Shown piece by piece: positions 29,254-64,000 of a stretch of DNA of 64,000 bases. The notes beneath the pieces are model-generated. The model did not search any database. It saw only the letters and a list, made by a program, of their open reading frames with translations, and was not told the DNA's origin. Position numbers and translations under genes: made by a program. Numbering within the stretch: the first letter of the stretch is position 1; each line of letters starts with the position of its first letter. The DNA comes from a virus (taxonomy: Duplodnaviria; Heunggongvirae; Uroviricota; Caudoviricetes): IMG/VR virus record IMGVR_UViG_2690316121_000006. One strand, 5' to 3'.

Positions 29254-29264
29254 AAGGATTTTAT

Positions 29265-29774: not shown

Positions 29775-29793
29775 GAGTCATCCCTTGTATTTT

Positions 29794-29818: not shown

Positions 29819-29909
29819 TAACCTTTTTATATAAAAATGCATCGATAACATTGTCTGGAGTTTTATGTTAGATTATTAATGTTCTAATAAACTACAATTA
29901 TTGAGGTAG

Positions 29910-30542: not shown

Positions 30543-30721
30543 CAGTAAAAAATTCCTTGCTCCTTGACAGAGGAGAGGATTAATCTAAGTACGCTAAGCA
30601 TAGGTATGGCCCCGGTTAATGTTAAGCGTTGTGCGGGACGCATAATGTTTACTGGGGCTTTCTTTTATCTATTTTGGGATAATCCTGAATTCCGTAGTAT
30701 TTGGCATCGGCTGCGGCTACA

Positions 30722-30973: not shown

Positions 30974-31032
30974 AACGAATATCGCCAGAGCAATGTATAA
31001 ATCCCTCTGCGCCGGGCAGAGGGACTAAATAG

Positions 31033-46294: not shown

Positions 46295-46729
46295 ATGTCT
46301 GACGTCTCAACAAACCTCTATAAGAGTCAGTTGTTGGACTATTACTATCAGCGGCGCGCTGAATCGTCCATTAACAAAGGCTCTCGATTTTTAATCAGCA
46401 AGGCCGTTTTCGGTACCAGTTCACTGGTTACTAAGAAAGGAGATGGCACTTATGAGATTGGAGAACTGCCAAAGGCTTTCGATCTGGCAGAACTGACCAG
46501 TCAATTTTGCACCATCAACCTCGTCCCAACCTACTCAGGCGGGATAATTACTGTCCGAATGGACCTTGATCAAAGCCAGTTGCAGGAAGGGAAAAACTAC
46601 CCATTCAACACTCTGGTTGTTCTGGATAACGAGAACAAGCCAATCGCCATTATTTGTGTCCAGGAAGACTCGCTGTATGTGGGCAAAACATATACCGCAG
46701 TTATGGCCATAAACACGACTACAGCATAA
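46295..46729 (+). CDS. tail-fibre-proximal protein
   Basis: 144-aa ORF directly upstream of the fibre gene. Confidence 0.4.
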   Translation: MSDVSTNLYKSQLLDYYYQRRAESSINKGSRFLISKAVFGTSSLVTKKGDGTYEIGELPKAFDLAELTSQFCTINLVPTYSGGIITVRMDLDQSQLQEGKNYPFNTLVVLDNENKPIAIICVQEDSLYVGKTYTAVMAINTTTA

Positions 46730-46740
46730 GGATATGCTTG

Positions 46741-49700: not shown

Positions 49701-50154
49701 TAATAAGGTATCAACCAGTTCCGCCCAGGCATTATTAAGACAAGACCATGCTGACAGAAAGTTCTTTATTGGTGGTCTTGGTAATAGTCAATTCGGCTTT
49801 TACATGATTAACAACTCAAGAACAGCAAATGGTACAGATGGCCAAGCATTTCTTGATAGCAGTGGTAACTTCCAGTGCGGCAGGCAAATACTTCCAGCTA
49901 ACTATAGTAATTTTGACTCGCGCTACGCATTAAAAACGGCTTGTGTGACAAGCGTAAGAATGGGATCTGCTGCCAGTTATAAACCATCAAGCAATGGTGT
50001 TTCCTGGACTCAGAATCTAGGAAGCGGACTGGTTATGACAGGTATTATTGTTCAAGAAACAGGAAGTAATTCAGCTGACAATATCGGTGGTATTTATTAT
50101 CGACCGGTTCAATATTGTATCAATGGAACATGGTACACAGCAGCATCAGTATAA
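46741..50154 (+). CDS. tail fibre protein (constant N-terminal part plus invertible C-terminal part)
   Basis: ATG 46741 after RBS; multiple ~18-aa repeats (PGVNTTGNQNTTGNAATATKLQTAR...); C-terminal 220 aa lie inside the invertible segment and have a reverse-strand alternative. Confidence 0.8.
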   Translation: MNDVTVVTSVTYPSPESLALVADVQYHEPYLSAALNRKFRGIVDPGFYAGFLPKPGGGMNLLITSVDGDKTAGAASVDIGEFYQVTIQQRKDISLALSAGKKYAIVLKGRYLLGEDTYQVNTASHIHAAEFVSRTYTDSYQLGDGELLVCTVNIPAGVSAITQEMIDTSERINRTIGIDISDSVTSSRSDVAASSLAVKKAYDLAKSKYTAQDASTTQKGLVQLSSETNSDSETMAATPKAVKSVKDLADTKAPIESPSLTGTPTAPTAAQGTNSTQIANTAFVKAAITALINGAPGTLDTLKEIAAAINNDPNFSTTINNALALKAPLASPALTGIPTAPTAAQGTNNTQIATTAYVRAAISALVGSSPEALDTLNELAAALGNDPNFATTMTNALAGKQPLDATLTALAGLATGANKLPYFTGTDTVSQTDLTSVGRDILAKTSVLAVIQYLGLRELGTSGEKIPLLSTANTWSARQTFNGGITGALAGNADTATKLKTARSIGGVAFDGSANINLPGVNTTGNQNTTGNAATATKLATARNINGVKFDGSVDISIPTITSRGRVTALTGTTQGAATGLQMYEAYNNGYPSAYGNVLHLKGATAVGEGELFIGWSGTSGAHAPVHVRSRRDTDTASWSEWAQVYTSKDSIPGVNTTGNQNTTGNAASATKLQTARTIGGVSFNGTANIDLPGVNKTGNQSTTGNAATATKLQTARTINGVSFDGTANISLSPANIGCPASPTGWLETGDNGASITTEQLVTLLRDNGAFNAKVWIARCAWAYANSASIPDSETGCGIIPLAGAVIEVFNNGSSSNNYTIRITTATTTSVSGALTNAEFVYVFNGTSYSPGWRRAYNTKNKPTAADVGALPLSGGALTGGLTAAGEIISKSANGLRIAYGNYGFFIRNDGSSTYFMLTASGDNLGTWNSLRPLTINNANGAVSIGNGLNVTGDIRTNAWVYANRFSVNSSSGSWISMRDQNVIFGLNKVSTSSAQALLRQDHADRKFFIGGLGNSQFGFYMINNSRTANGTDGQAFLDSSGNFQCGRQILPANYSNFDSRYALKTACVTSVRMGSAASYKPSSNGVSWTQNLGSGLVMTGIIVQETGSNSADNIGGIYYRPVQYCINGTWYTAASV
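49471..49588. repeat. left inverted repeat of the invertible segment (contains crossover site)
   Basis: 49471-49560 is the reverse complement of 51907-51996 with a single mismatch at the inner end; homology then decays. Confidence 0.75.
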
Positions 50155-50165
50155 TGAGAGAGCAT

Positions 50166-50681
50166 ATGAATAACTTTAAAAATTTCGCACCATATACGCC
50201 AGGCGAAGATAAAAGAGAGCTTGTTGATGCAGGAGTTTTATTCCTGTTGGATGAAAACGGTAACGACTGGTATGAATGTCAGAAGTTATTTTCGGAATGT
50301 ACAAAGGTAATTGCGTATGATAGCAACAACATCGTTGTCAGCATTACAGATGATGTCTCAACCCTTTGGCCCATAGGATTATCTGTAGCAGAAGTGGATG
50401 GTTTACCTGAAGATGTAGATATCAACGGTGGTTGGGTGTTTAGAGACAACTCTGTTGTTAAACGCATATATTCTGATACGGAGTTACAACAGCAAGCTGA
50501 ATCAAAAAAGGCCGCCTTGCTTTCACACGCCGAATCAGTAATTGTAACTCTTGAGCGGGCGGTTAAATTGAATATGGCAACAGATGAGGAACGAGCTAAA
50601 CTGGAAGCATGGGAGCATTATAGCGTGTTGGTTTATCGCGTAGATACAGCTAAACCAGAATGGCCAGAAGAACCGGAGTGA
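50166..50681 (+). CDS. tail fibre assembly protein
   Basis: ATG 50166 (ORF track 50115); MNNFKNFAPYTPGEDKRELVDAGVLFL... paralogous to the reverse-strand copy. Confidence 0.6.
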   Translation: MNNFKNFAPYTPGEDKRELVDAGVLFLLDENGNDWYECQKLFSECTKVIAYDSNNIVVSITDDVSTLWPIGLSVAEVDGLPEDVDINGGWVFRDNSVVKRIYSDTELQQQAESKKAALLSHAESVIVTLERAVKLNMATDEERAKLEAWEHYSVLVYRVDTAKPEWPEEPE

Positions 50682-50682
50682 A

Positions 50683-50714
50683 GTGAAGGCCCGATTTATC
50701 GGGCCTTCACTTTT
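50683..50714. terminator. bidirectional intrinsic terminator
   Basis: GTGAAGGCCCGAT-TT-ATCGGGCCTTCAC with TTTT, between convergent assembly genes. Confidence 0.55.
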
Positions 50715-51270
50715 AACCTGGCTCAGTAGGCCAGACGATCGCATTGAAACTGGCTTTATCTGTTATTGTGTTGAAATCTAATGCATTAACTGCATCAATA
50801 TAGTCCAGCCAGGCGTCAAGAGAAGACTGTTCATCTTCAGATAATATTCTGCCGCGTAGTAATTTTGTCTGGCTAATCACGAGTTGTTGACGTGCGTTGT
50901 TAAGTAGCTCAGTGCGTCTTGATTCCGCCATAGCTTTTAACTCATCTGCGGTTCTTACTCTTTCAACCACATTTTTTCCGTCAAACATCCAGTTCCCGTT
51001 AATATCTACTCCATCAGGCAGGATTTCTATTTCTGCTACAGATGCTCCCACTGGCCAGAGTGTTGAAACATCGTTTGAAATACTCACAACAATATTATCG
51101 CTGTCATAAACTATCTTTATCGTGTTCTCATGAAAAAATTTCTGACATTCATACCAGTCATTACCGTTTTCATCACGTAAAAATACAACTCCTGCTTCAA
51201 CAAGCTCTGACTTATCTTCATCTGGGGTGTAGGATGTGAACTTTTTAAAATTAATCATCGTTTGATCCAT
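50713..51270 (-). CDS. tail fibre assembly protein (alternative orientation)
   Basis: 185 aa; MINFKKFTSYTPDEDKSELVEAGVVFL... Confidence 0.6.
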   Translation of the reverse strand: MDQTMINFKKFTSYTPDEDKSELVEAGVVFLRDENGNDWYECQKFFHENTIKIVYDSDNIVVSISNDVSTLWPVGASVAEIEILPDGVDINGNWMFDGKNVVERVRTADELKAMAESRRTELLNNARQQLVISQTKLLRGRILSEDEQSSLDAWLDYIDAVNALDFNTITDKASFNAIVWPTEPG

Positions 51271-51276
51271 TAATAA

Positions 51277-51978
51277 TCATGCTGTGGCTGCTGTATACCA
51301 AGTTCCATTAATGCAATACTGTAAAGGCCTCAATCTTGCTGGGTCGTCACCATCAACTTCACCAATAATCCCAAGCCCTGTAATGACATAGCCAGCAGTT
51401 TCAAACATCGTGCCTTTCTGCATGGTATGAGTTTTATATGCCCCAAGTCTGACGCTAGTCACACAAGCCGTCTTTAATGCGTAGCGCGAGTCAAAATTAC
51501 TATAATTAGAGGGGGACACCTGACCATTTACAGCAAATGTTATACTGTTATCAGTATTTCTCTGACTATAAAAATGCCATCCTGAATCATCACCTAATTC
51601 AGCTACAACAGGACGAGTAGAGGCACCCCATAGATTAAAGGTTACGTTCTTAGTGGATGTGTTTGAACTTGATAATGAAAAAGTTTTACTATCTCCGACC
51701 AGCAATTTTTTTAAAGAAAAAGCTGCATCATTCTTAAAGCGGAATACTCGCTGACTATTAGCGTAAACATCAAGAATGCCATCACCATTCTGTTTAAAAC
51801 CAGTATCATTATCGCCAAGGACGATAGAGTTACCACCAAGAGCATTTGCAGTACCCAGACCAACAGAACCATAAACAGTTAAACCATTACCGATTGAAAC
51901 AGCACCATTGGCGTTGTTAATGGTAAGCGGTCTTAAACTATTCCATGTTCCAAGATTGTCACCCGAGGCGGTCAACAT
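51277..51978 (-). CDS. alternative tail-fibre C-terminal segment
   Basis: Begins MLTASGDNLGTWNSLRPLTINNANGAVSIGNGL, identical to the fibre gene at the left repeat, ends ...LQYCINGTWYTAATA like the forward copy. Confidence 0.65.
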   Translation of the reverse strand: MLTASGDNLGTWNSLRPLTINNANGAVSIGNGLTVYGSVGLGTANALGGNSIVLGDNDTGFKQNGDGILDVYANSQRVFRFKNDAAFSLKKLLVGDSKTFSLSSSNTSTKNVTFNLWGASTRPVVAELGDDSGWHFYSQRNTDNSITFAVNGQVSPSNYSNFDSRYALKTACVTSVRLGAYKTHTMQKGTMFETAGYVITGLGIIGEVDGDDPARLRPLQYCINGTWYTAATA

Positions 51979-51996
51979 GAAGTATGTGCTTGAACC
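51879..51996. repeat. right inverted repeat of the invertible segment
   Basis: Reverse complement of 49471-49588; outer flank TGTGCTTGAACC-AA-GGTTTAGGATTG (51985-52010) resembles Hin-family crossover sites. Confidence 0.75.
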
Positions 51997-52001
51997 AAGG
52001 T

Positions 52002-52562
52002 TTAGGATTGAAATGATGACGCCGGAAACTTCTTATAAAGCGTGGAAACAGCCACATCATAGATGATTGCAACCTGCTTACGGGGGATGCCCTTCTCCAG
52101 CAATCGCCGCATTTGCTGCAATGTTTCTTCTTGGTATTTAGGCCGACGCCCACCTATACGACCTTCTGCGCGAGCTGCATCAAGTCCAGCGCGTGTACGT
52201 TCAACGATAAGCTCACGTTCCATTTCTGCCAGCGCCCCCATTACGTGAAAGAAAAAGCGCCCCATTGGTGTACTGGTGTCGATGGAGTCAGTGAGACTCC
52301 GGAAGTTAATGCCTCTGTCACGCAGCTCTTCCACCAGCACAACTAAGTGACGCATGCTGCGCCCAAGACGGTCTAACTTCCATACGACCAGGGTATCACC
52401 TCTGGAAAGCATACGGAGTACCTTTTTTAACCCAGGGCGCTCAGCCTTTTTGCCGCTCGCCTTGTCCTCAAAAATTAGCTCACATCCTGCGCTTTCAAGA
52501 GCATTTCGTTGTAAAGCAGTGTTTTGTTCATTTGTTGATACGCGTACATAGCCTATTAGCAT
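52002..52562 (-). CDS. cin: serine DNA invertase, Hin/Gin/Cin family
   Basis: 186 aa; MLIGYVRVSTNEQNTALQ... with catalytic Ser region and C-terminal HTH, near-collinear with Gin. Confidence 0.9.
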   Translation of the reverse strand: MLIGYVRVSTNEQNTALQRNALESAGCELIFEDKASGKKAERPGLKKVLRMLSRGDTLVVWKLDRLGRSMRHLVVLVEELRDRGINFRSLTDSIDTSTPMGRFFFHVMGALAEMERELIVERTRAGLDAARAEGRIGGRRPKYQEETLQQMRRLLEKGIPRKQVAIIYDVAVSTLYKKFPASSFQS

Positions 52563-52689
52563 ATTTTCTGCTCACTATCGTTATTTATAGCAAGCTGCGG
52601 ATTTTAATTAACAAAAACCTGTGTGTGTGGAAATCACAAAGTACATACCGTTTCCCAATGATATTTAATTCACTATTAAGGAAATAGTT

Positions 52690-52971
52690 ATGTGTGATTT
52701 CACAATAATGCTCCTCTCTATCCTTGGCGGGGTGCATTCGTTTCTGAATGGGGTTCGTGAAAAACGTTACGAAGCGTCATGCAGGCAATTGATGGCCGAG
52801 TGTATTGCTGCCGTACTTGCAGGCTTTATAGGCATGTATTTCGCGGAATATAAGGGTATGGATGAAAGTCTTCAGAATTGCGTGACTATTATTTGCAGCA
52901 TCAATAACAGGCTCATTCTTGAAAAGTTACAAAGGATTATCGATTCGTACCTCAATAGAAATGCCTCTTAA
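52690..52971 (+). CDS. small membrane protein, holin-like paralog
   Basis: 93 aa; two hydrophobic helices; similar to the next ORF. Confidence 0.4.
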   Translation: MCDFTIMLLSILGGVHSFLNGVREKRYEASCRQLMAECIAAVLAGFIGMYFAEYKGMDESLQNCVTIICSINNRLILEKLQRIIDSYLNRNAS

Positions 52972-52972
52972 G

Positions 52973-52996
52973 CAACAAATGACCGGTTGAGAAGTT
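52973..52996 (+). promoter_or_regulatory. putative late promoter element (GCAACAAATGACC...)
   Basis: Fifth site carrying the AACAAATGAC core, about 45 bp upstream of the holin-like gene. Confidence 0.3.
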
Positions 52997-53038
52997 ACTT
53001 TGCATACCATTACCTCCTGACAACGTAGGAGGGAACTT

Positions 53039-53368
53039 GTGCTTGACACACAGGAATTAGCTCCAGTTGCTATTGCGCTCCTGCTTTCAGTAATTGGTGG
53101 GATAGGCACGTTCCTGATGGATGTCCGAGACGGTCGCCAGTCTGGCAATTTGTTGGGATTGGTTACGGAGATCTTTGTTGCAGTGACAGCTGGCGCGGTG
53201 GCGTACCTATTGGGGCAACACGAGGGCTGGGAGTTATCAATTACGTACTTAATGGTAACGATAGCCAGCAATAACGGTCATGAGGTGATTTCAGGGATGA
53301 AACGAGTGAATATCGATAGCATTCTGAATGTTCTTACAAGTTTGGTGAAAAAGGGAGGCGGGAAATGA
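53039..53368 (+). CDS. holin-like membrane protein (LydA-like)
   Basis: 109 aa; two or three TM helices; first gene of the late operon that contains the DarA-like gene. Confidence 0.5.
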   Translation: MLDTQELAPVAIALLLSVIGGIGTFLMDVRDGRQSGNLLGLVTEIFVAVTAGAVAYLLGQHEGWELSITYLMVTIASNNGHEVISGMKRVNIDSILNVLTSLVKKGGGK

Positions 53369-53808
53369 TTGGCTGGGGTGTATGCGTTCTTGCGTTAGCC
53401 TTAGCCGATCGCTATTTGCTAAAACGCAAGGACATCACGCATTTAGAACTTGGTGATGTGGAAATTAAACCGGGTTTCATCCGGGTGCCGTTCAAGTACC
53501 GGTCTAAATTCCCGTTTTTGCGCGGCGCAACGGTCAGATATTGGATCCGCGATGTTCAGAAGCCGACGACAGTGATTGAAGGTGAACAACGTTGTCTGAC
53601 GTCGGCTGAACAGGGCGAAAACAGTGAATGGTTGTACATACCCACTGAATATATGGGTAAAGGAGAGCGACTGTGGCATTTCAACGTCATGGTTACGCAT
53701 GGCGACTCGTTCATTAACCCGTTGTATCGCATTTTCCCTGTTACTCAGCAAATCCGCAGAAGTTACGTAATAAATCTCGCACAGGATGTGTCAGATGACG
53801 AAAAATAA
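53365..53808 (+). CDS. hypothetical protein (antiholin candidate, LydB-like by position)
   Basis: 147-aa ORF coupled to the holin-like gene. Confidence 0.4.
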   Translation: MIGWGVCVLALALADRYLLKRKDITHLELGDVEIKPGFIRVPFKYRSKFPFLRGATVRYWIRDVQKPTTVIEGEQRCLTSAEQGENSEWLYIPTEYMGKGERLWHFNVMVTHGDSFINPLYRIFPVTQQIRRSYVINLAQDVSDDEK

Positions 53809-54397
53809 GTATGCAACGGTCGATTTTGACCAGGTTAATGAAAAGGGGCTGAAATCCCTTATCGCGGCGATCAATAAAACCGGTGTTACGGTAATTGAGG
53901 TTGACTCCAGCAACCGCGCAACAACGAAAGATGGCGTTAAAGTTAAAACCGCAAAGCTGGTTCTTAACGACGGACAAATTCTTGCCATACAGGTAAACGA
54001 TACTGGCGATATATCGTCTGTGAAGCTGAATGGAAAAGCTATTCCTAACGCTCAGTCGCCGGATATCAAGACGCTTGGTACCGTTATGGGACAGGCGGCC
54101 CGCAAAAACTCCGCAAAATTCCAGAAATCACTGATCGCCAAAGCGAAGCGTGTTGCCAATCCGGTAGACAAGAAACCGGCAGTTAAATCCAACTTTCAGC
54201 GCCTGCAAGAAGCAAAACAGCGGAATGCTCAGGTGGTTGCCGCTTATAAGTCCGCGCAGAATTCGGTGTCTTTCAATCAACAGCAGATCACTGATTTGCG
54301 GGCGAAGCTGGATAAGGAGACAGGCCGACTCAATAACGAAAAGGCCCGAAATGGCGAACTCAAACGCCGTCTTAAGCAACTGAAAGCAGGAAATTAA
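53786..54397 (+). CDS. Lys-rich coiled-coil protein (head-assembly factor candidate)
   Basis: 203 aa, K/A/Q-rich C-terminal half. Confidence 0.4.
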   Translation: MCQMTKNKYATVDFDQVNEKGLKSLIAAINKTGVTVIEVDSSNRATTKDGVKVKTAKLVLNDGQILAIQVNDTGDISSVKLNGKAIPNAQSPDIKTLGTVMGQAARKNSAKFQKSLIAKAKRVANPVDKKPAVKSNFQRLQEAKQRNAQVVAAYKSAQNSVSFNQQQITDLRAKLDKETGRLNNEKARNGELKRRLKQLKAGN

Positions 54398-54398
54398 C

Positions 54399-56318
54399 AT
54401 GGAACAGTTCAATATCAATAAAGGGGTGACGATCAAGCCTGGGCTGGACGTGCTTCCCCCGCCAGTGACTGATGATGAATATCGCGCATTAATGGCCGGT
54501 GAGGACCGCTATCTGATGACGGAATCCAACACCCTGGAGGAAATCGAGGCTACGTTCTTCTATGACACGCCGATCCACTGGTGTGCTACGGATTTACTGG
54601 AGGCGATTAGTTCTACTCGTTTGCAGTTACACCGGACCATGCAGGCATTTGTCCGGGCATTGAACCAGAAGCTGAATGGTACCGGAATCTCTGCGGGGAG
54701 TGATAAAACGGGGGATGTTGCCCAGAGCGGCGCGCGCGCGATCGGCGGCGCTGAAATTGGTCGGGCACGTAACGTTAACGGGCTGCCGGTCCTGCCAGCC
54801 ATTATTCCGCTCAGTGATGGTCAGACTATCAGCATTGTGTTTCATAGCCCGACAGCGGAAAACCGGATCACCAATAGCGATACGCTGGTTGCTTTCCAGT
54901 TCTTACTGAATAAAAAAGACGTTACTCACACCGTTGCTCCGATGAGTGGACGTGATATGACGCTGGCGCAGGTCACCATGAAACTTGCCAACCTTGCAGA
55001 GAAAAACTCGGCAAAATTCCAGCGGGCGCAGAAGAAGAAAAAAGCCCTTGTTGATGAAATAACCCAACTACAGGCTGACAGTGACCAGAAAGAGGATGCC
55101 ATGAGCGACCTCGCGGATCAGGTGGCAGCGGTAGAAGGGCAGAAGGCAGATCTGGAGCAGAAAATTAACGCTGTTGCATCGGAAGCGGATTCTCTTTATG
55201 AAGAGAATGAGCGTTTGCAGACGGAGATTGATCAGCTCAATCGCACTGGTGGGCGCGATACCATTGCTCCAGCGGGGATGACTGGTGGGCACTCTCGCGC
55301 GCTGACGGATCGCCTTGCCAGTATCAAAAATCGTATGCATATGAACGGGGAAGTGACGCTCAGTAATGGTGCATCAATGAAGCAATTCATTGAGGACGGC
55401 GAAGGGTATATCCAGTTAACCGATTCGGATGGCAGCGTGTACATGATCAAGGCTAAATCCATACAGGGTGTGGACATGGCAGATGCGATCGGCAAGCTGT
55501 TTAAAGCCTATAAAGCGGGTAATGTATCGGAATATCTGGTCCAACCAGAAGAACATAAACCGGAAAACGTCGAACCTGAACCAGCGGAGGATACCGGTAG
55601 CTCTTCGCCTGAACCAGAAGTCTCTGTAGGTGCATATCGATATGCCCTGCAAATGCGTCCGGCGGCCCCTGGCGCAATACCTGAAGGTAACAAAGCAATT
55701 CTGCCGCGCCCTGATGAAGGTGACCCGTATTATGAATATGCTCGCTACGGCATTGCTACTTACGATACCCCGCTTTCTGATCAGCAAATGAGTGAGTACG
55801 ACATGAAGTTATTGCCTCGCGAGGATTCTTTCGACTTCCTGGCGAAGACACTTACTAATGGTCCGTTTGGCAAATATGCACAAAAAGCTCTGGAGCTGGC
55901 CACCAGCTCACCAGACGAGTTCCGCGTAATGCTGAAAACTCAGTTTCAAAAAATTTTCCCCAATATTGCGTTTCCTGGTGGCGCTGGCACCGAGAAAATG
56001 GTGCAGAGCATGATCAATGCATTGCAGGCCGAAGTCGGTGAGATTACTCAGCCAGAACCGGCCCCGGCACAGCCTGATGAAACGGTTAGCGAAGCAGATG
56101 CAGAGGCTAATAAAGCCATTGAATATCTCAATAACGTGATGGATATACAAAGCACTGACATGGCGGAGATCCGTAACGCCCGGGGCAATGTCCGGGAAGC
56201 GATTGCAGCCCTTCAGGCTGCCGGACGTTTTGAGGAAAACGAAGAGCTGGTTAACGGCGCAGCTCGCCACCTGGCTGATCTGTTGGTAGCAATCCAGAAA
56301 GCGGGGGTAGCGGCATGA
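54399..56318 (+). CDS. DarA-like antirestriction/internal head protein
   Basis: 639-aa ORF, matching the size recalled for DarA and sharing an operon with holin-like genes; central coiled-coil; assignment by size and position only. Confidence 0.45.
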   Translation: MEQFNINKGVTIKPGLDVLPPPVTDDEYRALMAGEDRYLMTESNTLEEIEATFFYDTPIHWCATDLLEAISSTRLQLHRTMQAFVRALNQKLNGTGISAGSDKTGDVAQSGARAIGGAEIGRARNVNGLPVLPAIIPLSDGQTISIVFHSPTAENRITNSDTLVAFQFLLNKKDVTHTVAPMSGRDMTLAQVTMKLANLAEKNSAKFQRAQKKKKALVDEITQLQADSDQKEDAMSDLADQVAAVEGQKADLEQKINAVASEADSLYEENERLQTEIDQLNRTGGRDTIAPAGMTGGHSRALTDRLASIKNRMHMNGEVTLSNGASMKQFIEDGEGYIQLTDSDGSVYMIKAKSIQGVDMADAIGKLFKAYKAGNVSEYLVQPEEHKPENVEPEPAEDTGSSSPEPEVSVGAYRYALQMRPAAPGAIPEGNKAILPRPDEGDPYYEYARYGIATYDTPLSDQQMSEYDMKLLPREDSFDFLAKTLTNGPFGKYAQKALELATSSPDEFRVMLKTQFQKIFPNIAFPGGAGTEKMVQSMINALQAEVGEITQPEPAPAQPDETVSEADAEANKAIEYLNNVMDIQSTDMAEIRNARGNVREAIAALQAAGRFEENEELVNGAARHLADLLVAIQKAGVAA

Positions 56319-56680
56319 CACTATCAGCGATTGAGTTAATGGACCTCAGCGATAAGTTGGATGCTCTGATGTCCAAAGCGGCTACCGCGAGTGGCATGGA
56401 GTTGCTGGATATCAGCGATGAAATTGACCAGATCATGCAACAGATGGGGTACGGCGCGTCTGGCGGCGGTAGTGGCGAGGAAAAACAACCTTCGGAACAT
56501 GATGGTGTGCCAAAACTGGTTGCGGATTTCCTGGCTGATAAATTCGTCGATCAGAGCACTGATGCATTTATCGGTACGTTACAGGACTTGAGTCAATATG
56601 TTGGCACATACATCGACCTGGACCAGGTTAAACAGCACACGGCGGCATGGATAGCCGCCAACATTAAAGAGGCAGCATAA
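56315..56680 (+). CDS. small acidic protein (DdrA-like by position)
   Basis: 121-aa ORF. Confidence 0.4.
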   Translation: MTLSAIELMDLSDKLDALMSKAATASGMELLDISDEIDQIMQQMGYGASGGGSGEEKQPSEHDGVPKLVADFLADKFVDQSTDAFIGTLQDLSQYVGTYIDLDQVKQHTAAWIAANIKEAA

Positions 56681-56692
56681 GGCGTAACAGGG

Positions 56693-59680
56693 ATGAGCTT
56701 AAGCGATCAGGTGGTAATGGCCACCAGCATAGAAACGCTGATCGAGCTGCTAAAGAACCTGCCCGATTATGGGCGGGTTTCGTATGTGGTGACAGCGAAG
56801 GGAGACGAGGTAAAAACAGCGTTTGATATCGTCGATGCCTCAGTTCTTTTGGTATCCAATACTCTGGATGGGAAAATTAATCCTGACTATCCCCAGGAAC
56901 TTCAACCGCGCGACCGGACCCGCGCATCCAGCCTTCTTCAGGTTAACCAGATATCCAAAGATTTGCGGCCTGCTCAGCTTACTGATTCCGGTTTATCCAG
57001 CCATGGCGCGCCGATAATTGGTGAGGACAATGCCGTTGAGTCAGGTAATGGGCGGACCATGGGGATCATTAAAGCCTATCAGGACGGTAATGCGGATCGG
57101 TATCGGGAGTACCTGATTGAACATGCGACCGAATTCGGAATACGACCTGAAAAGGTTGAATCAATGACGGCTCCGGTACTGGTGCGCCGCCGGTTAACGA
57201 AGGTTGACCGTGTTCAGTTTGCCAAGGACTCAAATATTTCTGATCTCCAGGAAATGGCAGCCAGTGAAAAGGCTTTTGTTGATGCCGACAGCATAACACC
57301 GGCGATGATGGCGTTGTTTAACCCGTCAGAAAGCGGAGATCTGCTTAGCCGCAGTAATGACGCGTTTATTCGCGGATTCATGACGCAAGTTGGTGCCACA
57401 CAGGCTGCTGGCCTTGTAACGGAAGATGGGCGACCAACACGGCAACTTGTAGACCGTATACAAAACGCGATCTTTGCCAAGGCATATAAGGATGCGCGCC
57501 TGGTAAGGATGGTTGCAGAAGAACCTGATCCGGATATGCGTAATGTTCTGACGGCGCTTAATGCGGCAGCCAATGATTTTGTCCAGATGCAGGCTTTATC
57601 AGGAGAAGCGCACAAGCAGGCTGTGACAACTATTGTTGATGGCATTGAGACAGCGGATAGCCTCGATAAAAAGGCGCTGGCGGCATTGAAAGATGCGGTA
57701 GACCTGGTAAGGCAATCGAAGGAGTCAGGCCAGCATATTACCGATGTTATTTCTCAGGGGGATATGTTCAGCGAAACGGCCCCGGAAGTGAAAGCACTCG
57801 CGTTGTTTATCGTCGCGAATAACCGTAGCGCGAAGCGTATGGCCACCGCCTTTAAGTTGATGGCGCAACGTATCAATGATGAGTTACAGCACCAGGGCCA
57901 GGCGCTCGGGGATATGTTTGGCGGCGGCGATGTGTCGTTACAGGATATCCTTCGCCAGGTGTCTCAGGAACTGGAAAACGAAGGTATGCAAGGGATATCC
58001 AGCGGTCTTTTCGAGTCAGCTTCCGGCGGTAGTTACAACGGTGTTGCTCCATATACCAGCTTGCTATTACATCGGGCATCCGGCATCAAAGACATTATTC
58101 ATCTGATCAGGCTGCTTTCCCGTACAGATCCCCAGGATGAACAGCTTGTGCAAGTGCTTGCGCATTTTGTTCGAATGCCTGTTGCCGACGTGAATAAATG
58201 GTGCCGATTATTCGGTATCAGCAATTCGTTACTTCGCGGATTGTTAAATCACGCATCCTCCCTTGGGCGCGACGGCTTTGATGAGATAGCGCAGACGATA
58301 AAAAACGGAGATATGCCACCAGCTATTGACTGGTTTTCCATTCGCCCAACCAGGGTGAAAGCATTTCTTAGCGCGGCGCAATCAGTATCACCATTGGCAG
58401 AAATGGTTCAGAGGTTATCGCTCATATTCACAGACCATACCGCGTTGGGTGATCTGACTCTGGACGAGATGAAGGAAGCCTCCATTCAGTGGGCCGATCA
58501 ACAAAATGAGGTTAACTCAGACTTCTTGCCAGCATTCAGGAAGGCCGTTAGTAAAGCGGATGATGCCCGTGGAATTCTGAAGGCATTTAAGGCATTGCAA
58601 AGTCGTGTTAATAAACATGTCGGTGATATCGATGGGGTAACGGCGGAAGGCCGGGATATCCTTAAAGAGCACGGCATAACGCCAGAGTTTATTGATGAGA
58701 TCAGGACTGATATGCAGCGTGAGGTCGTATCGTCCCTGCAAATCGTAGCCAGAGCGTTGGCGGATGCTAATCCGAAGAGTGCGGCCATTGTTAACCGTGT
58801 TATTGGTGATATTGAAGCATCGGAGGGCATGGGGGCGCTGAAACTCTTCCTTTCGCGAGCGTTTAATCCTAACGGCAATATTCTCCCCAGCATTATTGGT
58901 GAGGCTAAAAAGCATGTCAGTGAAGAAGAACTTGAGCAGCTTAACCAGCTACTCAATCGATTTTCATATATCCCGCAGAAACGCTGGCAAATGAATCAGC
59001 GAAGTATGGATTCGGTCTACGAGAAAGTGTTATCTGCCATGAACAGTGCGATCGCCAACTCATCTGTATCAGAAGAAAAAGCTCTTGAGTGGGCCGACTC
59101 TTTTATCACGGAAGAAGTGGAAGAAGCCCGCGCTGGACAGAATGGTGGAATAGACCTGCGCAAGGAACTTGCTGATATTTATCGCCTGACCGGCGGGAAA
59201 ATATCAACCTTATCAAGGGTAATTCACCACAAGGGTAGGGCGTATGCAAATCTTAATGGTGTTGTTGCTGTCGATTTGCACGATGAAAATGCAAATGCAC
59301 TGTGGCACGAGCTGGGTCATCATCTTGAGTACAGTAACCCGGGTTTGTTAGAGAAAGCCAGGTCATTCCTGAAGGCCAATGTTGAAGGGGATAAGCCATC
59401 TTTCGTTAATATCGGTGGGCGTGGCAAGCCTGAATGGTGCTTCAGATCTCGATTGAGTGATATTTATATGGCGAAGGTATACCCGCCTGTCTCAGTGAGT
59501 AATTCTGGTAAATTTCGACACAAATCTCCGACAATTTCCAAAACGTCAGCAACGGAAGTGTTCTCTATGGCTCTTCAGTTGTATCATGACAAAGAGGCCG
59601 CTGCCGCATCACTGATGAATGGTGACGGATTGCTGGAACTGTTATTAGGTGTGGCAAAGGAGCTAAATAATGCAGATTAA
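56693..59680 (+). CDS. large protein (DdrB-like by position)
   Basis: 995-aa ORF in the same operon. Confidence 0.45.
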   Translation: MSLSDQVVMATSIETLIELLKNLPDYGRVSYVVTAKGDEVKTAFDIVDASVLLVSNTLDGKINPDYPQELQPRDRTRASSLLQVNQISKDLRPAQLTDSGLSSHGAPIIGEDNAVESGNGRTMGIIKAYQDGNADRYREYLIEHATEFGIRPEKVESMTAPVLVRRRLTKVDRVQFAKDSNISDLQEMAASEKAFVDADSITPAMMALFNPSESGDLLSRSNDAFIRGFMTQVGATQAAGLVTEDGRPTRQLVDRIQNAIFAKAYKDARLVRMVAEEPDPDMRNVLTALNAAANDFVQMQALSGEAHKQAVTTIVDGIETADSLDKKALAALKDAVDLVRQSKESGQHITDVISQGDMFSETAPEVKALALFIVANNRSAKRMATAFKLMAQRINDELQHQGQALGDMFGGGDVSLQDILRQVSQELENEGMQGISSGLFESASGGSYNGVAPYTSLLLHRASGIKDIIHLIRLLSRTDPQDEQLVQVLAHFVRMPVADVNKWCRLFGISNSLLRGLLNHASSLGRDGFDEIAQTIKNGDMPPAIDWFSIRPTRVKAFLSAAQSVSPLAEMVQRLSLIFTDHTALGDLTLDEMKEASIQWADQQNEVNSDFLPAFRKAVSKADDARGILKAFKALQSRVNKHVGDIDGVTAEGRDILKEHGITPEFIDEIRTDMQREVVSSLQIVARALADANPKSAAIVNRVIGDIEASEGMGALKLFLSRAFNPNGNILPSIIGEAKKHVSEEELEQLNQLLNRFSYIPQKRWQMNQRSMDSVYEKVLSAMNSAIANSSVSEEKALEWADSFITEEVEEARAGQNGGIDLRKELADIYRLTGGKISTLSRVIHHKGRAYANLNGVVAVDLHDENANALWHELGHHLEYSNPGLLEKARSFLKANVEGDKPSFVNIGGRGKPEWCFRSRLSDIYMAKVYPPVSVSNSGKFRHKSPTISKTSATEVFSMALQLYHDKEAAAASLMNGDGLLELLLGVAKELNNAD

Positions 59681-59981
59681 AATCGCAGCGCCATTAGGCG
59701 GAGATGCCATTATCGAATTTGATGATAATGAAGAAGTTTCCGGGCGTTTAAGCATTATCTCCGGTGACATTACCGAGGACATGATCGCTGAAGCCATAGC
59801 TGGGGCAAATCCCAATAGCTATATGGGATTCGTTAACACCCTTGATGCCCCCGCAAGTGATGTTCTCCGAACGCTGCATCTTTACGCTGGCTGGTTTGTT
59901 GATTGGCCAGCAGTAGATGGTGGCGATGAGGACGACGACGACGATGATTTTGGTGATCATGTAGACCAGATCGTATATTGA
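59670..59981 (+). CDS. small protein with poly-Asp tail
   Basis: 103 aa ending ...DGGDEDDDDDDFGDHVDQIVY. Confidence 0.4.
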   Translation: MQIKIAAPLGGDAIIEFDDNEEVSGRLSIISGDITEDMIAEAIAGANPNSYMGFVNTLDAPASDVLRTLHLYAGWFVDWPAVDGGDEDDDDDDFGDHVDQIVY

Positions 59982-59985
59982 AGAA

Positions 59986-60013
59986 ATCCCGCCAATCGGC
60001 GGGATTTTTTTTA
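59986..60013. terminator. bidirectional intrinsic terminator
   Basis: ATCCCGCC-AATC-GGCGGGAT followed by TTTTTTTT; A-rich on the other side. Confidence 0.7.
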
Positions 60014-60799
60014 ATCGCTTTCCACTTCTTCCGTGGTGTTTTCTTGCAGTTCTGTTAATGCAGCACGACATAGGTTCCGGGCATTGGCTATAGCCACACT
60101 TTTGACTTCATCCGTCATCGTGCAGGTAATGTACTGATCGAGTTCTTCAGCGCGGATGATGCTTTTGCCAATCAGAAACTGTATTTGCCAGAGCAGATCG
60201 GCATCCATAATCAGAATTTCTGCCGGGCCTTCAGGGCCAGCCGGGAAGGAAACATAAGACTGTTTGCCCAGGCCGATAACTCGACAACTTGCTTCAAGAA
60301 TTGCGCGCTTGAGGTCTGACTTTGTAACGGAAACAGGTTGGTTTTCACCAGTGATTATGCCGTTGATATGGAAGTGGAAGGGCATGTAGCTTGAAATTCG
60401 CTCTACTTTCCATACGCCAGCAAGCGATCCTTCATGCAGCACAATGGGGGTAACCGCGAGTTTCATCTCACCATATAACTGCTGGCAGATAGCTGGATTG
60501 CTGAATACATCCAAAGGTTCACACTCAAACAGCGGCGCAATCTGCATGAGGTCCATCATGGTCATACCAGGGGTACGAGCAGTAATGAATCTGCGCATGC
60601 CAGTATCCATTGTGCGCCAGATAGCTACACCATGCTTTTTGCTCACTTCTTCAGTAAAGCCAAGGTGGCACATGATGGTTTTTTCGATAGCCAGATCAGA
60701 GATCGAAACCTTTTCGCCAGGCACACCATCATTATTGATGGTCACTTCGACACTCTGACCATTACGCAGGCGGTATTGAATTGCTTTAGTATTTTCCAC
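60011..60799 (-). CDS. hypothetical protein
   Basis: 262-aa ORF. Confidence 0.45.
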   Translation of the reverse strand: MENTKAIQYRLRNGQSVEVTINNDGVPGEKVSISDLAIEKTIMCHLGFTEEVSKKHGVAIWRTMDTGMRRFITARTPGMTMMDLMQIAPLFECEPLDVFSNPAICQQLYGEMKLAVTPIVLHEGSLAGVWKVERISSYMPFHFHINGIITGENQPVSVTKSDLKRAILEASCRVIGLGKQSYVSFPAGPEGPAEILIMDADLLWQIQFLIGKSIIRAEELDQYITCTMTDEVKSVAIANARNLCRAALTELQENTTEEVESD

Positions 60800-60805
60800 G
60801 TTAAA

Positions 60806-61603
60806 TCACTCCACTACAAACCAGTCACATGCCAGTAAGTCGCCTACAGAAGGAACCCACGGAACAACTACACCTTGTGCATTTTTTAAGGCGAAATAAG
60901 CACCATACGGAACGAGGTCACTGGGGAAATATCCCTTAATGGCTTCCATTCGTGCCGGGTACTGCCCTTCAGGAACCAGCCAGCAGAATTGGTTTTCGCC
61001 GTTCCACCCGCGTCGAGCAACTTTCTTGCCATCCTTCAGCCACATCAGCGCGTCAGAAAAGTCGGCTGCTTCAAGGTCGATTTCTTCTTGTAGAGTAGCG
61101 ATACCGCCAGCAGAAATAGTTACGTCCCTGGCTGTAATGAATGTCACCCCGTTGTGACCTTCAATGCTGAGCAATGCCCCATTTTCGAAGAAGTCGTTAG
61201 TCCGACTAAAGCCTTCTTCAAATGTTTTTTCTGGTGAATAGGACAGAGATCCGTCCTCATAAGCGACCAGATATCCGCCAATTTCTGGTCGGTGTTTTTG
61301 CAAAAACATTTTATCAACATGGACTTTTACCCCTTCTGGCTCAACGACTTCGATGTTGCAAAGAAGGACCACATCCATTAGGGCGATAATTTCGATATCT
61401 TTGATTTTTGAGGCACGAACTGTTTTATGGCTTTTGTATTTTGGAAGTGCCGTCAAAAGCTCTTTCGTTGTCATATTATTCATAGTCTTTCCTCTGCTTA
61501 AAACCTGGTGTATTGCGCCTTCAGGTGGGCCAGGAATGTTTTCCCACCAGCGAAAGCAATATCTCGGGGTGTTCTTTTCGTGAAAAGCGCGTGCCATTGC
61601 CAA
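60806..61603 (-). CDS. protein with C-terminal DUF2829/Tad2-like domain
   Basis: C-terminal 85 aa ALMWLKDGKKVARRGWNGENQFCWLVPEG...PYGAYFALKNAQGVVVPWVPSVGDLLACDWFVVE matches the recalled Tad2-family pattern; about 160-aa N-terminal extension. Confidence 0.45.
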   Translation of the reverse strand: MAMARAFHEKNTPRYCFRWWENIPGPPEGAIHQVLSRGKTMNNMTTKELLTALPKYKSHKTVRASKIKDIEIIALMDVVLLCNIEVVEPEGVKVHVDKMFLQKHRPEIGGYLVAYEDGSLSYSPEKTFEEGFSRTNDFFENGALLSIEGHNGVTFITARDVTISAGGIATLQEEIDLEAADFSDALMWLKDGKKVARRGWNGENQFCWLVPEGQYPARMEAIKGYFPSDLVPYGAYFALKNAQGVVVPWVPSVGDLLACDWFVVE

Positions 61604-61680
61604 CTTTGGCGTTTTTTAGCGAGTTCGTGCTTTTGTTGGCGTCTGGACCACCGCTTTTCTTTCAATCGTTTTTTACTCAT

Positions 61681-62169
61681 TCAAAACGGAATATCGTCGT
61701 CAAAGTCCATTGGAGGTTCGTTATTGGCGTTGCTCTGAGGTTTACCGCCACCACTGTATTGCTGGTGGTTTTGAGGTTGGTTTGATTGCCCCCAGCCATT
61801 TGAGGACTGTGAATCGTCACGGCGAGCGCCGATCATTTGCATGGTGCCGCCCTGGCTGACGATAATTTCCGTCGTGTAACGTTCTACACCGGCGTCATCT
61901 GCCCACTTACGGGTTTTAAGTTTCCCTTCGATGTAGACCTGAGAACCTTTTCGTAAATACTCACTCGCAATTTCAGCAAGTTTTCCGAACAAAACGACTT
62001 TATGCCATTCTGTTTGCTCTTTCTGTTGGCCCGTTTGCTTGTCGCGCCATGATTCATTCGTTGCGATGCTGAGTCTTCCGACCGCGCCGCCATTTGGTAT
62101 ATACCTGATCTCCGGGTCTTGCCCTAGGGTACCAATCAGGATGACTTTGTTTACACCGCGTTGTGCCAC
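61681..62169 (-). CDS. ssb: single-stranded DNA-binding protein
   Basis: 162 aa; N-terminal OB fold ([16 protein letters not shown]...), Gly/Gln-rich linker, acidic tail DFDDDIPF. Confidence 0.9.
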
Positions 62170-62188
62170 TTATCTTACCTAATAAAAT

Positions 62189-62205
62189 AAATTAATTAGA
62201 GCAAT
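62189..62205 (-). promoter_or_regulatory. C1-type operator (16/17)
   Basis: Plus AAATTAATTAGAGCAAT, 20 bp upstream of ssb in the ssb/endolysin divergent region. Confidence 0.5.
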
Positions 62206-62226
62206 AATGTATATCTTTGAAACGTA

Positions 62227-62250
62227 GCTAACAAGTGATTTGCATTATCC
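62227..62250 (+). promoter_or_regulatory. putative late promoter element (GCTAACAAGTGATTT...CATTATC)
   Basis: AACAAGTGA core upstream of the endolysin gene. Confidence 0.3.
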
Positions 62251-62338
62251 TGTGCCTTCTAAAGGGATCGAGTCAGTCGGTATTGGCTGTGAATGGGTGT
62301 TTGTCCTGGAGCGTAAAAAATTCGCTTATGAGGTCTTT

Positions 62339-62896
62339 ATGAAGGGAAAAACAGCCGCAGGAGGCGGTGCAATTTGCGCTATCGCGGTGATGATTACCAT
62401 CGTGATGGGTAATGGCAATGTGCGAACCAACCAGGCGGGGCTTGAGCTTATCGGAAACGCTGAAGGTTGCCGACGTGATCCATACATGTGCCCGGCGGGT
62501 GTATGGACTGACGGGATTGGTAATACACACGGGGTAACGCCAGGCGTGCGAAAAACCGACCAGCAAATCGCCGCTGATTGGGAAAAGAATATCCTGATCG
62601 CTGAACGCTGTATTAATCAGCACTTCCGGGGCAAAGACATGCCCGATAATGCCTTCAGTGCAATGACAAGCGCGGCATTCAATATGGGATGCAATAGCTT
62701 ACGGACCTACTACAGCAAAGCGCGAGGCATGCGAGTAGAAACGTCCATCCACAAGTGGGCGCAGAAAGGGGAATGGGTGAATATGTGTAACCATCTCCCT
62801 GATTTCGTGAACAGTAACGGCGTCCCCCTGCCCGGGTTAAAGATTCGCCGTGAAGAAGAACGCCAGCTTTGCCTGACGGGGCTTGTCAATGAATAA
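62339..62896 (+). CDS. lyz: SAR endolysin (T4-lysozyme-fold muramidase with signal-arrest-release N-terminus)
   Basis: Start MKGKTAAGGGAICAIAVMITIVMGNG (weakly hydrophobic Gly/Ala-rich SAR helix), then the E/D(C)/T catalytic region and C-terminal IRREEERQLCL as in phage 21 R; ORF track begins 99 nt early. Confidence 0.85.
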   Translation: MKGKTAAGGGAICAIAVMITIVMGNGNVRTNQAGLELIGNAEGCRRDPYMCPAGVWTDGIGNTHGVTPGVRKTDQQIAADWEKNILIAERCINQHFRGKDMPDNAFSAMTSAAFNMGCNSLRTYYSKARGMRVETSIHKWAQKGEWVNMCNHLPDFVNSNGVPLPGLKIRREEERQLCLTGLVNE

Positions 62897-62924
62897 ACTC
62901 CGGCAGCTCCGCCGACTTTCGACA

Positions 62925-63143
62925 ATGAAGTTATCGCTGGCGGCGATAGTTTTTGACTCGATTTTCATGGCGGTATATGTGCTCAATGAGACGTGGCCAC
63001 TGGAACCACTATTGTATGCCGGGCTTCGGCTGTGCCTGACTTTTTTGAGCATGGCTGCAAGATTGATGCAGCAGAAAGAAACCGCTTCAGATTGTCCACG
63101 CCGCGCGGTGCGCAAATATATGGCACGCAGGCGAAGGCGATAA
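62925..63143 (+). CDS. small two-TM protein with Arg-rich tail (holin/pinholin candidate)
   Basis: Overlaps the endolysin stop; two hydrophobic helices then RRAVRKYMARRRRR. Confidence 0.4.
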   Translation: MKLSLAAIVFDSIFMAVYVLNETWPLEPLLYAGLRLCLTFLSMAARLMQQKETASDCPRRAVRKYMARRRRR

Positions 63144-63187
63144 TAGTTAACGAGAACCCCGGCAGCCGCCGGGGTTATTTTTGGTGG

Positions 63188-63985
63188 TTATTTAAATGGA
63201 TTGATTGAATTATTAAACGTGATGATGCTTGTCTCACGCGGTGCCTGGACGTTAGCCGCTTGCGGAACCTCCTTAATTTTCTTGGTGACAGGCAAGTTGC
63301 GTGCGCCAACTTTGATCAGAGATTCGAAAAGTGTGGCAACGATTTTTGCATCACCAGGTTCTTTGAGGCGGAATGCGTCTTTTTGGGCGGCGGAGACGAA
63401 GATCGGGAGGTTATCCAGTTCGTCTTGCATTGCTGCCAGCACATCGTCGCGGATACCCGCTGTTTCCTCCAGCAAAGCGATTCGCGCTTCAGCATCTGCG
63501 ATCTTGGCCATTGCTTCGAGGTGGCGGCCCTGGCTTTCGAGTAGTGCGGTTTCCAGTTCTGCCGTACGCTCTGTCGCCTCCACCATCATTTCCAGTTCAG
63601 CCATTTTGCCGTAATGGGATATAACTGCCTGCACTGACTCGTCGGAGTACCCATGCGCCGCCAAGGACTCTGCCAGTAGAGATTTAGAATCCGCGCTTTC
63701 AAACATTCCGGCGCTGGCGGGATGATCCAGACTGATATAGTTCGGCGTTGTCACATAATCCACACCATGGAAGCTGGTGGTTACAGCGATTTTCCCGGAC
63801 TCACGCCCGCCAGTGGCCCAGCTCCAGCCACCAGCTCGGCTTTCGATCATCGCGGCGACAATTTTACCCGGCTCTGTGTTAAGAATTTCCTGTGTATGGG
63901 TAACGATGCCGTTGTCGTCAACAGATATAGCCACTGTTCGGCACGCTGGAACATTGTCGATTACGACCGGGCGACCTTCCACCAT
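63188..63985 (-). CDS. hypothetical coiled-coil protein
   Basis: 265-aa ORF; start lies 15 nt from the right window edge. Confidence 0.4.
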   Translation of the reverse strand: MVEGRPVVIDNVPACRTVAISVDDNGIVTHTQEILNTEPGKIVAAMIESRAGGWSWATGGRESGKIAVTTSFHGVDYVTTPNYISLDHPASAGMFESADSKSLLAESLAAHGYSDESVQAVISHYGKMAELEMMVEATERTAELETALLESQGRHLEAMAKIADAEARIALLEETAGIRDDVLAAMQDELDNLPIFVSAAQKDAFRLKEPGDAKIVATLFESLIKVGARNLPVTKKIKEVPQAANVQAPRETSIITFNNSINPFK

Positions 63986-64000
63986 GATTACGCTGGTTTC

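Follow-up and report, generated by a model that had tools for sequence, protein, structure and literature searches.

Genes and signals at the locus

Positions 52690-59981 of the window (the whole 64-kb stretch of DNA that we analyzed) hold eight plus-strand open reading frames (ORFs) arranged head to tail, of 93, 109, 147, 203, 639, 121, 995, and 103 aa. The ORFs are tightly packed, with overlaps of 4 to 23 nt or gaps of 1 to 12 nt, and all eight are full length, free of any frameshift or stop. An earlier, sequence-only reading of this DNA had listed the 203-, 639-, 121-, 995-, and 103-aa members of the series, and each was found as described. Its description of the upstream end, a late-promoter-like motif followed by two or three small holin-like genes, held in part. 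The 93- and 109-aa products (LydC and LydA) do belong to a holin family, each with two hydrophobic segments, and the 147-aa product is instead the antiholin LydB. The motif is real and is the P1 late promoter LPdar; it lies after the first small ORF, lydC, rather than before it, and what follows it is one holin gene (lydA) and one antiholin gene (lydB).

Table 1. Features of the region, named after their P1 counterparts
Feature	Positions	Strand	Description	Evidence
Candidate sigma-70 promoter	52535..52562	+	TTGATA-16-TAGCAT; upstream of lydC	9/12, weak consensus match only
lydC	52690..52971	+	Accessory class II holin, 93 aa	98.9% aa identity to P1 LydC; PF16083
LPdar	52992..53010	+	Late promoter, AAGTTACTT-TGCA-TACCAT (-22 box AAGTTACTT, 52992-53000; -10 TACCAT, 53005-53010); between lydC and lydA	Base-for-base identical to annotated P1 LPdar
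lydA	53039..53368	+	Main holin, 109 aa, GTG start	100% aa identity to P1 LydA; PF16083; PHROG 1527 (holin)
lydB	53365..53808	+	Antiholin (LydA antagonist), 147 aa	98.6% identity to P1 LydB; PF16084, E 8e-104
hdf	53786..54397	+	DarA paralogue, 203 aa, basic (pI 10.2)	99% identity to P1 Hdf; DarA_N
darA	54399..56318	+	Internal head protein, 639 aa	97.8% identity to P1 DarA; DarA_N and DarA_C
ddrA	56315..56680	+	Acidic virion protein, 121 aa, pI 4.1	98.3% identity to P1 DdrA; PHROG 1855
ddrB	56693..59680	+	Polyvalent virion protein, 995 aa	96.3% identity to P1 DdrB; PF18763, E 7e-39
hxr	59670..59981	+	Last gene, 103 aa, pI 4.05, poly-Asp tail	97.1% identity to P1 Hxr
Terminator	about 59983..60010		Intrinsic terminator, GAAATCCCGCC-AATC-GGCGGGATTT, then T run	Hairpin dG -21 kcal/mol, z = -4.7

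A late-promoter pattern built from four annotated P1 late promoters was scanned against the window and matched five sites, all on the plus strand, compared to 0.22 expected by chance. One of these is the predicted Lpa-type LPdar, with its -22 box and -10, directly upstream of lydA; the window scan returned no match to the P1 late-promoter motif before lydC. Given the position of LPdar between lydC and lydA, lydC is a separate unit, upstream of and outside the LPdar transcription unit. In P1, lydC is monocistronic and sits behind a predicted early promoter, and its accessory-holin role is known from mutants (PMC9025707). The sigma-70 candidate upstream of lydC may be this "putative early promoter." Generic promoter and terminator scanning was uninformative within the operon, yielding 4 promoter-like sites where 11.2 were expected and 13 terminator-like sites where 8.1 were expected, and missing the real terminator. 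The strong terminator that the sequence-only reading had noted after the 103-aa ORF was borne out: none of 200 shuffled sequences folded as well, and the hairpin separates hxr (+) from a convergent 262-aa isaA-like ORF (-).

Correspondence with the P1 darA operon

The likeness to the P1 darA operon that had been noted in the size and order of the genes proved to be a near-perfect sequence match. By megablast, the region aligned to NC_005856 (P1) and AJ000741 ("Bacteriophage P1 darA operon") at 97.6% nucleotide identity over 100% coverage, and to other P1 isolates at 98.2%. When the products were aligned to annotated P1 LydC, LydA, LydB, Hdf, DarA, DdrA, DdrB, and Hxr, amino acid identities were 96.3 to 100% and the order was the same, so that the annotation maps onto P1 one to one for the operon genes; the only departure from the P1 lengths is one extra Asp in the acidic tail of Hxr. 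Set against the published operon (NC_005856 nt 24244-31230; AJ000741; Iida et al. 1998; Piya et al. 2017), which it resembles in genes, order, lengths, and late promoter, the region carries 166 substitutions in 7.2 kb. Pfam searches recovered the LydA-holin family, LydB, DarA_N (in both Hdf and DarA), DarA_C, and DdrB-ParB domains, PHROG families were matched as well, and the C-terminal HExxH motif of DdrB is present. By these alignments the genes are one-to-one orthologues of P1 lydA-lydB-hdf-darA-ddrA-ddrB-hxr, in P1 order on a single strand, with the separately transcribed lydC just upstream. The remainder of the 64-kb window is collinear with P1-like phages.

We are highly confident that region 52690-59981 is the P1 darA operon proper, carried by a P1-like temperate phage-plasmid (genus Punavirus). 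The description "DarA-like antirestriction set" had therefore named the right system in wording that was too weak. In detail, lydC lies outside the LPdar unit, and the 103-aa Hxr is without an established part in antirestriction or in the virion. That the operon is instead a distant analogue, similar in gene sizes and order and of unrelated or diverged function, drew only on the cautious wording of the earlier reading. With 98% nucleotide and 96 to 100% protein identity to P1, and exact family and structure matches, we give this idea virtually no credence; the P1 nucleotide and protein alignments refute it.

A second alternative holds that the operon is a decaying, nonfunctional remnant in a defective plasmid-prophage. 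Insertions are common in P1-like plasmids, an IS605-family tnpB separates pro from prt a short way beyond the window, and darB is truncated (see below), all of which would suit such a reading. Against it stand the eight intact ORFs, an LPdar identical to that of P1, the recovery of identical DdrB on 15 contigs, and dN/dS values relative to P1 of 0.06 to 0.28 for every operon gene, a measure by which these genes are under purifying selection. We consider decay very improbable.

Both head proteins match chains of the P1 virion: both aligned over their full lengths, DarA to the in-virion chain PDB 9ukm_I (E = 0) and Hdf to 9ukm_H (E 4e-122). By these matches, DarA and Hdf correspond to the P1 proteins of the inner capsid surface, whose structural context has been described (PMC12810830). 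By analogy with P1, DarA would be a head-size determinant and a platform for packaging other Dar proteins, and Hdf its partner on the capsid inner surface. An alternative hdf start at 53795 gives a 200-aa form, which is the one taken by gene callers; AJ000741 annotates both starts. DdrA is part of the P1 virion proteome and a reported antagonist of EcoA restriction (PMC9024508); against PDB sequences it gave nothing significant, only three chance-level matches (E about 0.26).

DdrB, for which PDB sequences gave no match at E<=0.01, carries a DdrB-type ParB domain near its N terminus (aa 36-167) and, toward the C terminus, a zincin motif, HELGH (HExxH), at aa 872. Interpreted as in the literature on polyvalent virion-injected proteins (PMC5512222), these domains predict ParB-type and peptidase activities. 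The C-terminal third of ddrB has the highest density of substitutions relative to P1. Positive selection on them was rejected, as this part combines a dN/dS of 0.24 with a dS (0.14) that is the highest, and the clustering looks like ordinary divergence or recombination.

The terminal gene product, Hxr, carries 24 acidic and 3 basic residues. It had no Pfam match at E<=10 and no PDB sequence match, and PHROGs give it no function. Its homologues, 14 sequences, are all P1-type and confined to P1-like elements, and the AlphaFold2 model from this shallow 14-sequence alignment (pLDDT 45, pTM 0.33) is of too low a quality for the fold to be assessed. The label of Xre-family helix-turn-helix (HTH) repressor that Hxr carries is unsupported and looks wrong, given the absence of an HTH profile match, the pI, and the excess of acidic residues.

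Homology to reference P1 ends at the hxr stop codon. The isaB gene and IS1, which follow hxr in reference P1, are absent here, and the predicted terminator differs in sequence from the reference P1 terminator and is absent from reference P1; the arrangement is that of Salmonella phage SJ46. In SJ46 and in Escherichia coli phage vB_EcoM-Ro157c2YLVW, both Punavirus, the operon is 97.9% identical to that in the window, and the downstream series is also alike (hxr, terminator, 262-aa gene, DUF2829/Tad2-like gene, ssb). SJ46 differs in having an IS200/IS605 insQ inside the operon region, which aligned in two pieces; the window has none. The dar region of phage P7 (odaC/odaE nomenclature) is 97.6% identical from lydA on, its alignment beginning at query position 299, and its lydC region differs from the window. 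This agrees with the report that LydC is the single lysis protein differing between P1 and P7 (PMC9025707). As a separate observation, isaA of reference P1 is a deletion fusion, and the Tad2-like gene lost there is intact here.

Truncation of darB in a near-identical contig

DarB and Ulx gave no tblastn match within the 64-kb window. A second contig, L005, corresponds to window positions 46693-64000 and differs over those 17,308 nt by a single mismatch (99.99% identity). In L005, homology to P1 ends at P1 nt 17095, cutting DarB to about 47 to 50 codons, and the sequence continues with PapB-like, FedA-like, and PapC-usher genes of a fimbrial operon. This darB-fimbrial junction was found in no complete E. 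coli genome. In the related Escherichia albertii plasmid pEA4_97, where the whole prt-to-cre interval was available, only aa 1 to 62 of DarB are present, and ulx and lxc are kept. Of the six-protein Dar set (Hdf, DarA, DdrA, DdrB, Ulx, and DarB), DarB and Ulx are thus the two without a match in the window, and the canonical darB is cut short in the part of L005 that was read, all but about 26 kb. Full-length darB is probably absent from the element, and, with darB truncated in L005, the EcoB/EcoK arm of the Dar system is probably missing here.

These results bear on how the operon should be read functionally. It is somewhat more plausible than not, in our judgment, that the operon here is mainly a capsid-morphogenesis and lysis module with partial antirestriction, of the EcoA type only, DarB, its largest cargo, having been lost and replaced by a chaperone-usher fimbrial operon. 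The near-identity of L005 to the window, the stop of its DarB ahead of the fimbrial genes, the short DarB of pEA4_97, the failure of DarB and Ulx to match anything in the window, and the continued purifying selection on the darA-operon genes all point this way. However, the source contig was read except for about 26 kb, and darB could sit there or past the fimbrial genes; the argument from size that darB does not lie elsewhere is one we infer from OP076345.1, in which about 17.9 kb is unread and about 10.6 kb would be needed for P1 genes. A darB-less element refines the identification as the P1 darA operon and does not contradict it.

Expected mechanism and significance

All functional statements for this operon are transferred from P1 to an element known here from its sequence, and would hold by analogy. 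The sources for P1 are PMC12810830, PMC9024508, PMC9025707, PMC12707154, and PMC5512222, with the Dar-system results of Piya et al. (2017) taken as they are cited in PMC12810830, PMC9024508, and PMC12707154. In P1, Dar products are packaged in the virion, DarA (and DdrB) being proteolytically processed (PMC12810830, PMC9024508, PMC5512222), and they protect packaged DNA in cis from the EcoA, EcoB, and EcoK type I restriction-modification systems and from BREX (PMC12810830, PMC12707154). On this model, Lpa-dependent LPdar would drive the whole unit late in lytic growth. Lysis timing would be set by LydA and LydB together with the unlinked Lyz/LydD, with LydC as an accessory. Hdf and DarA would enter the procapsid first, and the prohead protease would strip the N-terminal ~70 residues from DarA. 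The virion would then contain 55 DarA-Hdf pairs on the inner capsid surface at penton-hexon junctions, touching the DNA, and these pairs would tilt assembly toward full-size heads. In P1, loss of hdf or darA takes the share of normal heads from about 80% to about 15%. Loading of DdrA and DdrB, plus DarB and Ulx where present, would need Hdf and DarA. At infection, the Dar proteins would exit the head with the DNA and give it cis-acting protection from type I restriction; the EcoA family would be countered by DdrA and DarA, and EcoB and EcoK by DarB and Ulx.

Other phages offer partial parallels. DdrB shares its DdrB-ParB and zincin metallopeptidase architecture, and DarA and Hdf their DarA_N domain, with the polyvalent virion-injected effectors of Iyer et al. 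(2017), a broad comparative class rather than a mechanism. T4 IPI* is, like the Dar proteins, packaged in the head and coinjected with DNA, and IPI*, T7 Ocr, and the Dar proteins all oppose restriction at entry. IPI* and Ocr work in trans by binding and inhibiting the enzymes, whereas the action of Dar is confined in cis to copackaged DNA and is linked to the assembly of the capsid; Dar has no sequence relationship to either.

A lead that began from the size and order of genes has ended at the textbook P1 darA operon. The system is well studied and ordinary, warranting no claim of discovery, and it matters chiefly as a clean negative. Its practical use is in annotation: the operon was found in 499 PLSDB plasmids, in whose records its genes are mostly "hypothetical protein," and P1 supplies a name for each. 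The isaA gene of reference P1, a deletion artifact in which a Tad2-like candidate anti-Thoeris gene was lost, is a modest lead for P1 biologists. A broader proposal, which we offer as speculative and rather unlikely, is that the P1-like lineage seen here, like related plasmids of E. albertii, keeps an intact darA operon under purifying selection even though darB, which encodes the largest effector, has given way to an F18/FedA-like fimbrial operon. Hdf, DarA, DdrA, and DdrB would then be kept for DarB-independent reasons (head size, evasion of EcoA-type systems or BREX, or other cargo), and the acidic, lineage-restricted Hxr would be no repressor but either an unrecognized anti-defense factor, such as a mimic of DNA, or a chaperone for packaging. 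Natural variants that lack darB and retain the darA operon could help to tell what Hdf and DarA do in capsid assembly apart from what they do in antirestriction.

Identity with the P1 darA operon

The size and order of the genes between 52690 and 59981 (+) had suggested the darA operon of P1, and alignment bore this likeness out. In a megablast search with this region against 50,697 phage records, 19 records reached a query coverage of 80% or more, 13 of these being covered completely; identity was 97 to 98%, and all come from P1 or P1-like phages. Nucleotide identity was 98.2% for MH422554 and MH445380, and 97.6% for NC_005856, AF234172, AF234173 and AJ000741, the last deposited as "Bacteriophage P1 darA operon"; P7, SJ46, RCS47 and JL22 were also among the matches. 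Collinearity with P1-like phages and IncY-type phage-plasmids extends through the remainder of the window, and in PLSDB the operon was present in 499 plasmids, with coverage of at least 80% in 435.

The open reading frame listing confirmed eight head-to-tail genes of the sizes and order first described, which pair one-to-one with the P1 annotation (see table). All eight proteins aligned globally with their P1 counterparts at 96.3 to 100% identity and are of the same length, except that Hxr has one additional Asp in its acidic tail. Pfam placed Phage_holin_3_3 in both LydC and LydA, a LydB family match in LydB (E 8e-104), DarA_N in Hdf, DarA_N and DarA_C in DarA, and ddrB-ParB in DdrB, with PHROGs assignments in agreement. 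The zincin motif of DdrB (HELGH, residue 872) is retained. Over their full lengths, DarA and Hdf match 9ukm_I and 9ukm_H, two chains from the cryo-EM structure of the P1 virion. Judged by sequence, the region is the already known P1 darA operon in a natural P1 variant, and every defining feature of the operon that can be tested at this level is present.

Features of the region and its surroundings
Feature	Position	Strand	Length (aa)	Identity to P1 (aa)	Remark
Late-promoter pattern match	24385	+			exact
Late-promoter pattern match	32468	+			exact
Late-promoter pattern match	46246	+			exact
Tail-fibre C segment, end	51277-51978	-			invertible
Cin invertase gene	52002-52562	-
lydC		+	93	98.9%
Segment identical to P1	52960-53045
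LPdar	52992-53010	+
lydA		+	109	100%
lydB		+	147	98.6%
hdf		+	203	99.0%
darA		+	639	97.8%
ddrA		+	121	98.3%
ddrB		+	995	96.3%
"iddB" ORF	57214-57645	-	143		antisense within ddrB
hxr	59670-59981	+	103	97.1%
Break in similarity to P1	59982-60011
262-aa gene	60011-60799	-	262
Tad2-like ORF	60806-61603	-	265		PF11195, E 2e-22
LPlyz	62233	+			exact

Selection relative to P1 was purifying in all genes (dN/dS of 0.06 to 0.28). Substitutions are denser in the C-terminal third of ddrB, where dS is also highest, and we therefore attribute them to ordinary divergence. The antisense frame within ddrB, annotated in P1 as iddB (132 aa there), had no family match or other support and is probably not a gene.

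The P1 annotation describes Hxr as a possible Xre-like repressor. The protein has a pI of 4.05, 24 D/E against 3 K/R and a poly-Asp tail; it matched no helix-turn-helix or other family profile even at E<=10, our homologue search found relatives in P1-like elements only, and its AF2 model is of low confidence (pLDDT 45). These sequence properties are unlike those of a repressor, and the label looks unfounded.

Limits of the transcription unit

The sequence-only reading set a late-promoter-like motif before two or three holin-like genes. The motif stands and corresponds to LPdar, but it follows lydC instead of preceding all of the small genes; likewise, LydC and LydA belong to a holin family but LydB is the antiholin. 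LPdar is annotated in P1 between lydC and lydA, with 4 nt separating a -22 box of AAGTTACTT from a -10 of TACCAT, and could be placed here because the surrounding segment is identical to P1. When LPmat, LPpro, LPlyz and LPdar were combined into one degenerate pattern (AAGTKAYTW-N4-YANNNT), it matched the window five times, always on the + strand and with LPdar among the matches, against 0.22 expected; the three unnamed matches presumably head other late operons. This search found no match ahead of lydC, which is described as a monocistronic unit with a predicted early promoter upstream (PMC9025707), so a start at 52690 takes in a gene outside the LPdar operon: lydC adjoins that operon and is not part of it. 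The Cin gene lies directly upstream of lydC, and the C segment also lies upstream, as in P1.

The genes are tightly joined, with overlaps of 4 nt (lydA/lydB and darA/ddrA), 23 nt (lydB/hdf) and 11 nt (ddrB/hxr) and gaps of 1 nt (hdf-darA) and 12 nt (ddrA-ddrB), as would be expected of a single transcription unit. The strong terminator proposed after the last gene was also recovered: directly past the hxr stop codon, GAAATCCCGCC-AATC-GGCGGGATTT and a T run form a hairpin of -21 kcal/mol (z = -4.7; 0 of 200 shuffles fold as well). A generic scan, uninformative within the operon, did not list it.

The resemblance to reference P1 ends precisely at this codon. In P1 the hxr gene is followed by a terminator of P1's own, isaB and IS1. 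The window has neither isaB nor IS1, and its hairpin terminator is a different one, bidirectionally placed and common to hxr and the convergent 262-aa gene; Salmonella phage SJ46 and phage Ro157c2YLVW show this arrangement too. The 262-aa gene lies downstream of one with a Thoeris anti-defence 2-like (Tad2-like) domain, whose true start is likely further in (~225 aa). Both are separate and intact here. The isaA gene of reference P1 arose by loss of 684 bp, which joined the first ~57 codons of the Tad2-like gene to the 262-aa gene; the domain, intact in the window and in SJ46, is thus absent from laboratory P1.

DarB and the antirestriction proteins packaged by P1

Fifteen public contigs carry a DdrB sequence identical to the one found here. 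One of them, BFQW01000100.1 (96 kb), reproduces window 46693-64000 with one mismatch in 17.3 kb (locus positions 1-17308). In the region past the window end (locus positions 17628-22988), pro and prt are separated by an IS605-family tnpB. Homology to P1 then extends only as far as nt 17095 of P1, within darB, so that only ~47 to 50 codons are left; PapB-like, FedA/F18-like and PapC-usher genes of a fimbrial operon follow. Across the whole prt-to-cre interval, the related Escherichia albertii plasmid pEA4_97 retains only DarB residues 1-62 but keeps ulx and lxc. Because of these two truncations, the element studied here, ~26 kb of whose contig lies outside the DNA read, probably lacks DarB. Otherwise, full-length darB (441) and the darA operon (435) are about equally common among plasmid records.

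We infer the functions of the lysis and Dar genes by orthology from experiments in P1. There, LydA is the main canonical holin, LydB delays its action and LydC is an accessory holin, all cooperating with the unlinked SAR-endolysin Lyz and the pinholin LydD (PMC9025707); here too LydA would drive lysis, delayed by LydB and assisted by LydC, with Lyz and LydD. The P1 dar genes are all dispensable for plaques on a permissive host. Purified P1 virions contain Hdf, DarA, DdrA and DdrB (PMC9024508). Hdf and DarA enter first, loss of either gene excludes all other Dar proteins, and deletion of either lowers full-size heads from ~80% to ~15% (PMC12810830). By cryo-EM, 55 DarA-Hdf pairs line the inside of the capsid, one at each penton-hexon junction, where they touch both capsid and DNA; emptied heads lack them. 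The map does not show DarA residues 1-69, in line with the report that the prohead protease Pro removes ~9 kDa from the N terminus (PMC12810830). DarA has 14 substitutions relative to P1, four of them (N316D, V319A, E332G and S343P) in or beside the two penton-binding loops of that structure (residues 321-326 and 342-346; PMC12810830).

The roles assigned in P1 are antagonism of EcoA for DdrA, aid in the addition of DarB for DdrB, and inhibition of EcoB and EcoK for DarB, whose localisation Ulx helps (PMC9024508). DdrB is a predicted polyvalent protein, auto-processed by its C-terminal metallopeptidase, whose ParB-like N-terminal part is predicted to be packaged (PMC5512222). In P1, the Dar proteins exit with the DNA and protect only in cis, against type I restriction-modification systems and BREX (PMC12707154). 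By orthology, Hdf and DarA of this phage would load first and admit the remaining Dar proteins, and all of these would leave the head with the DNA and shield that DNA in cis.
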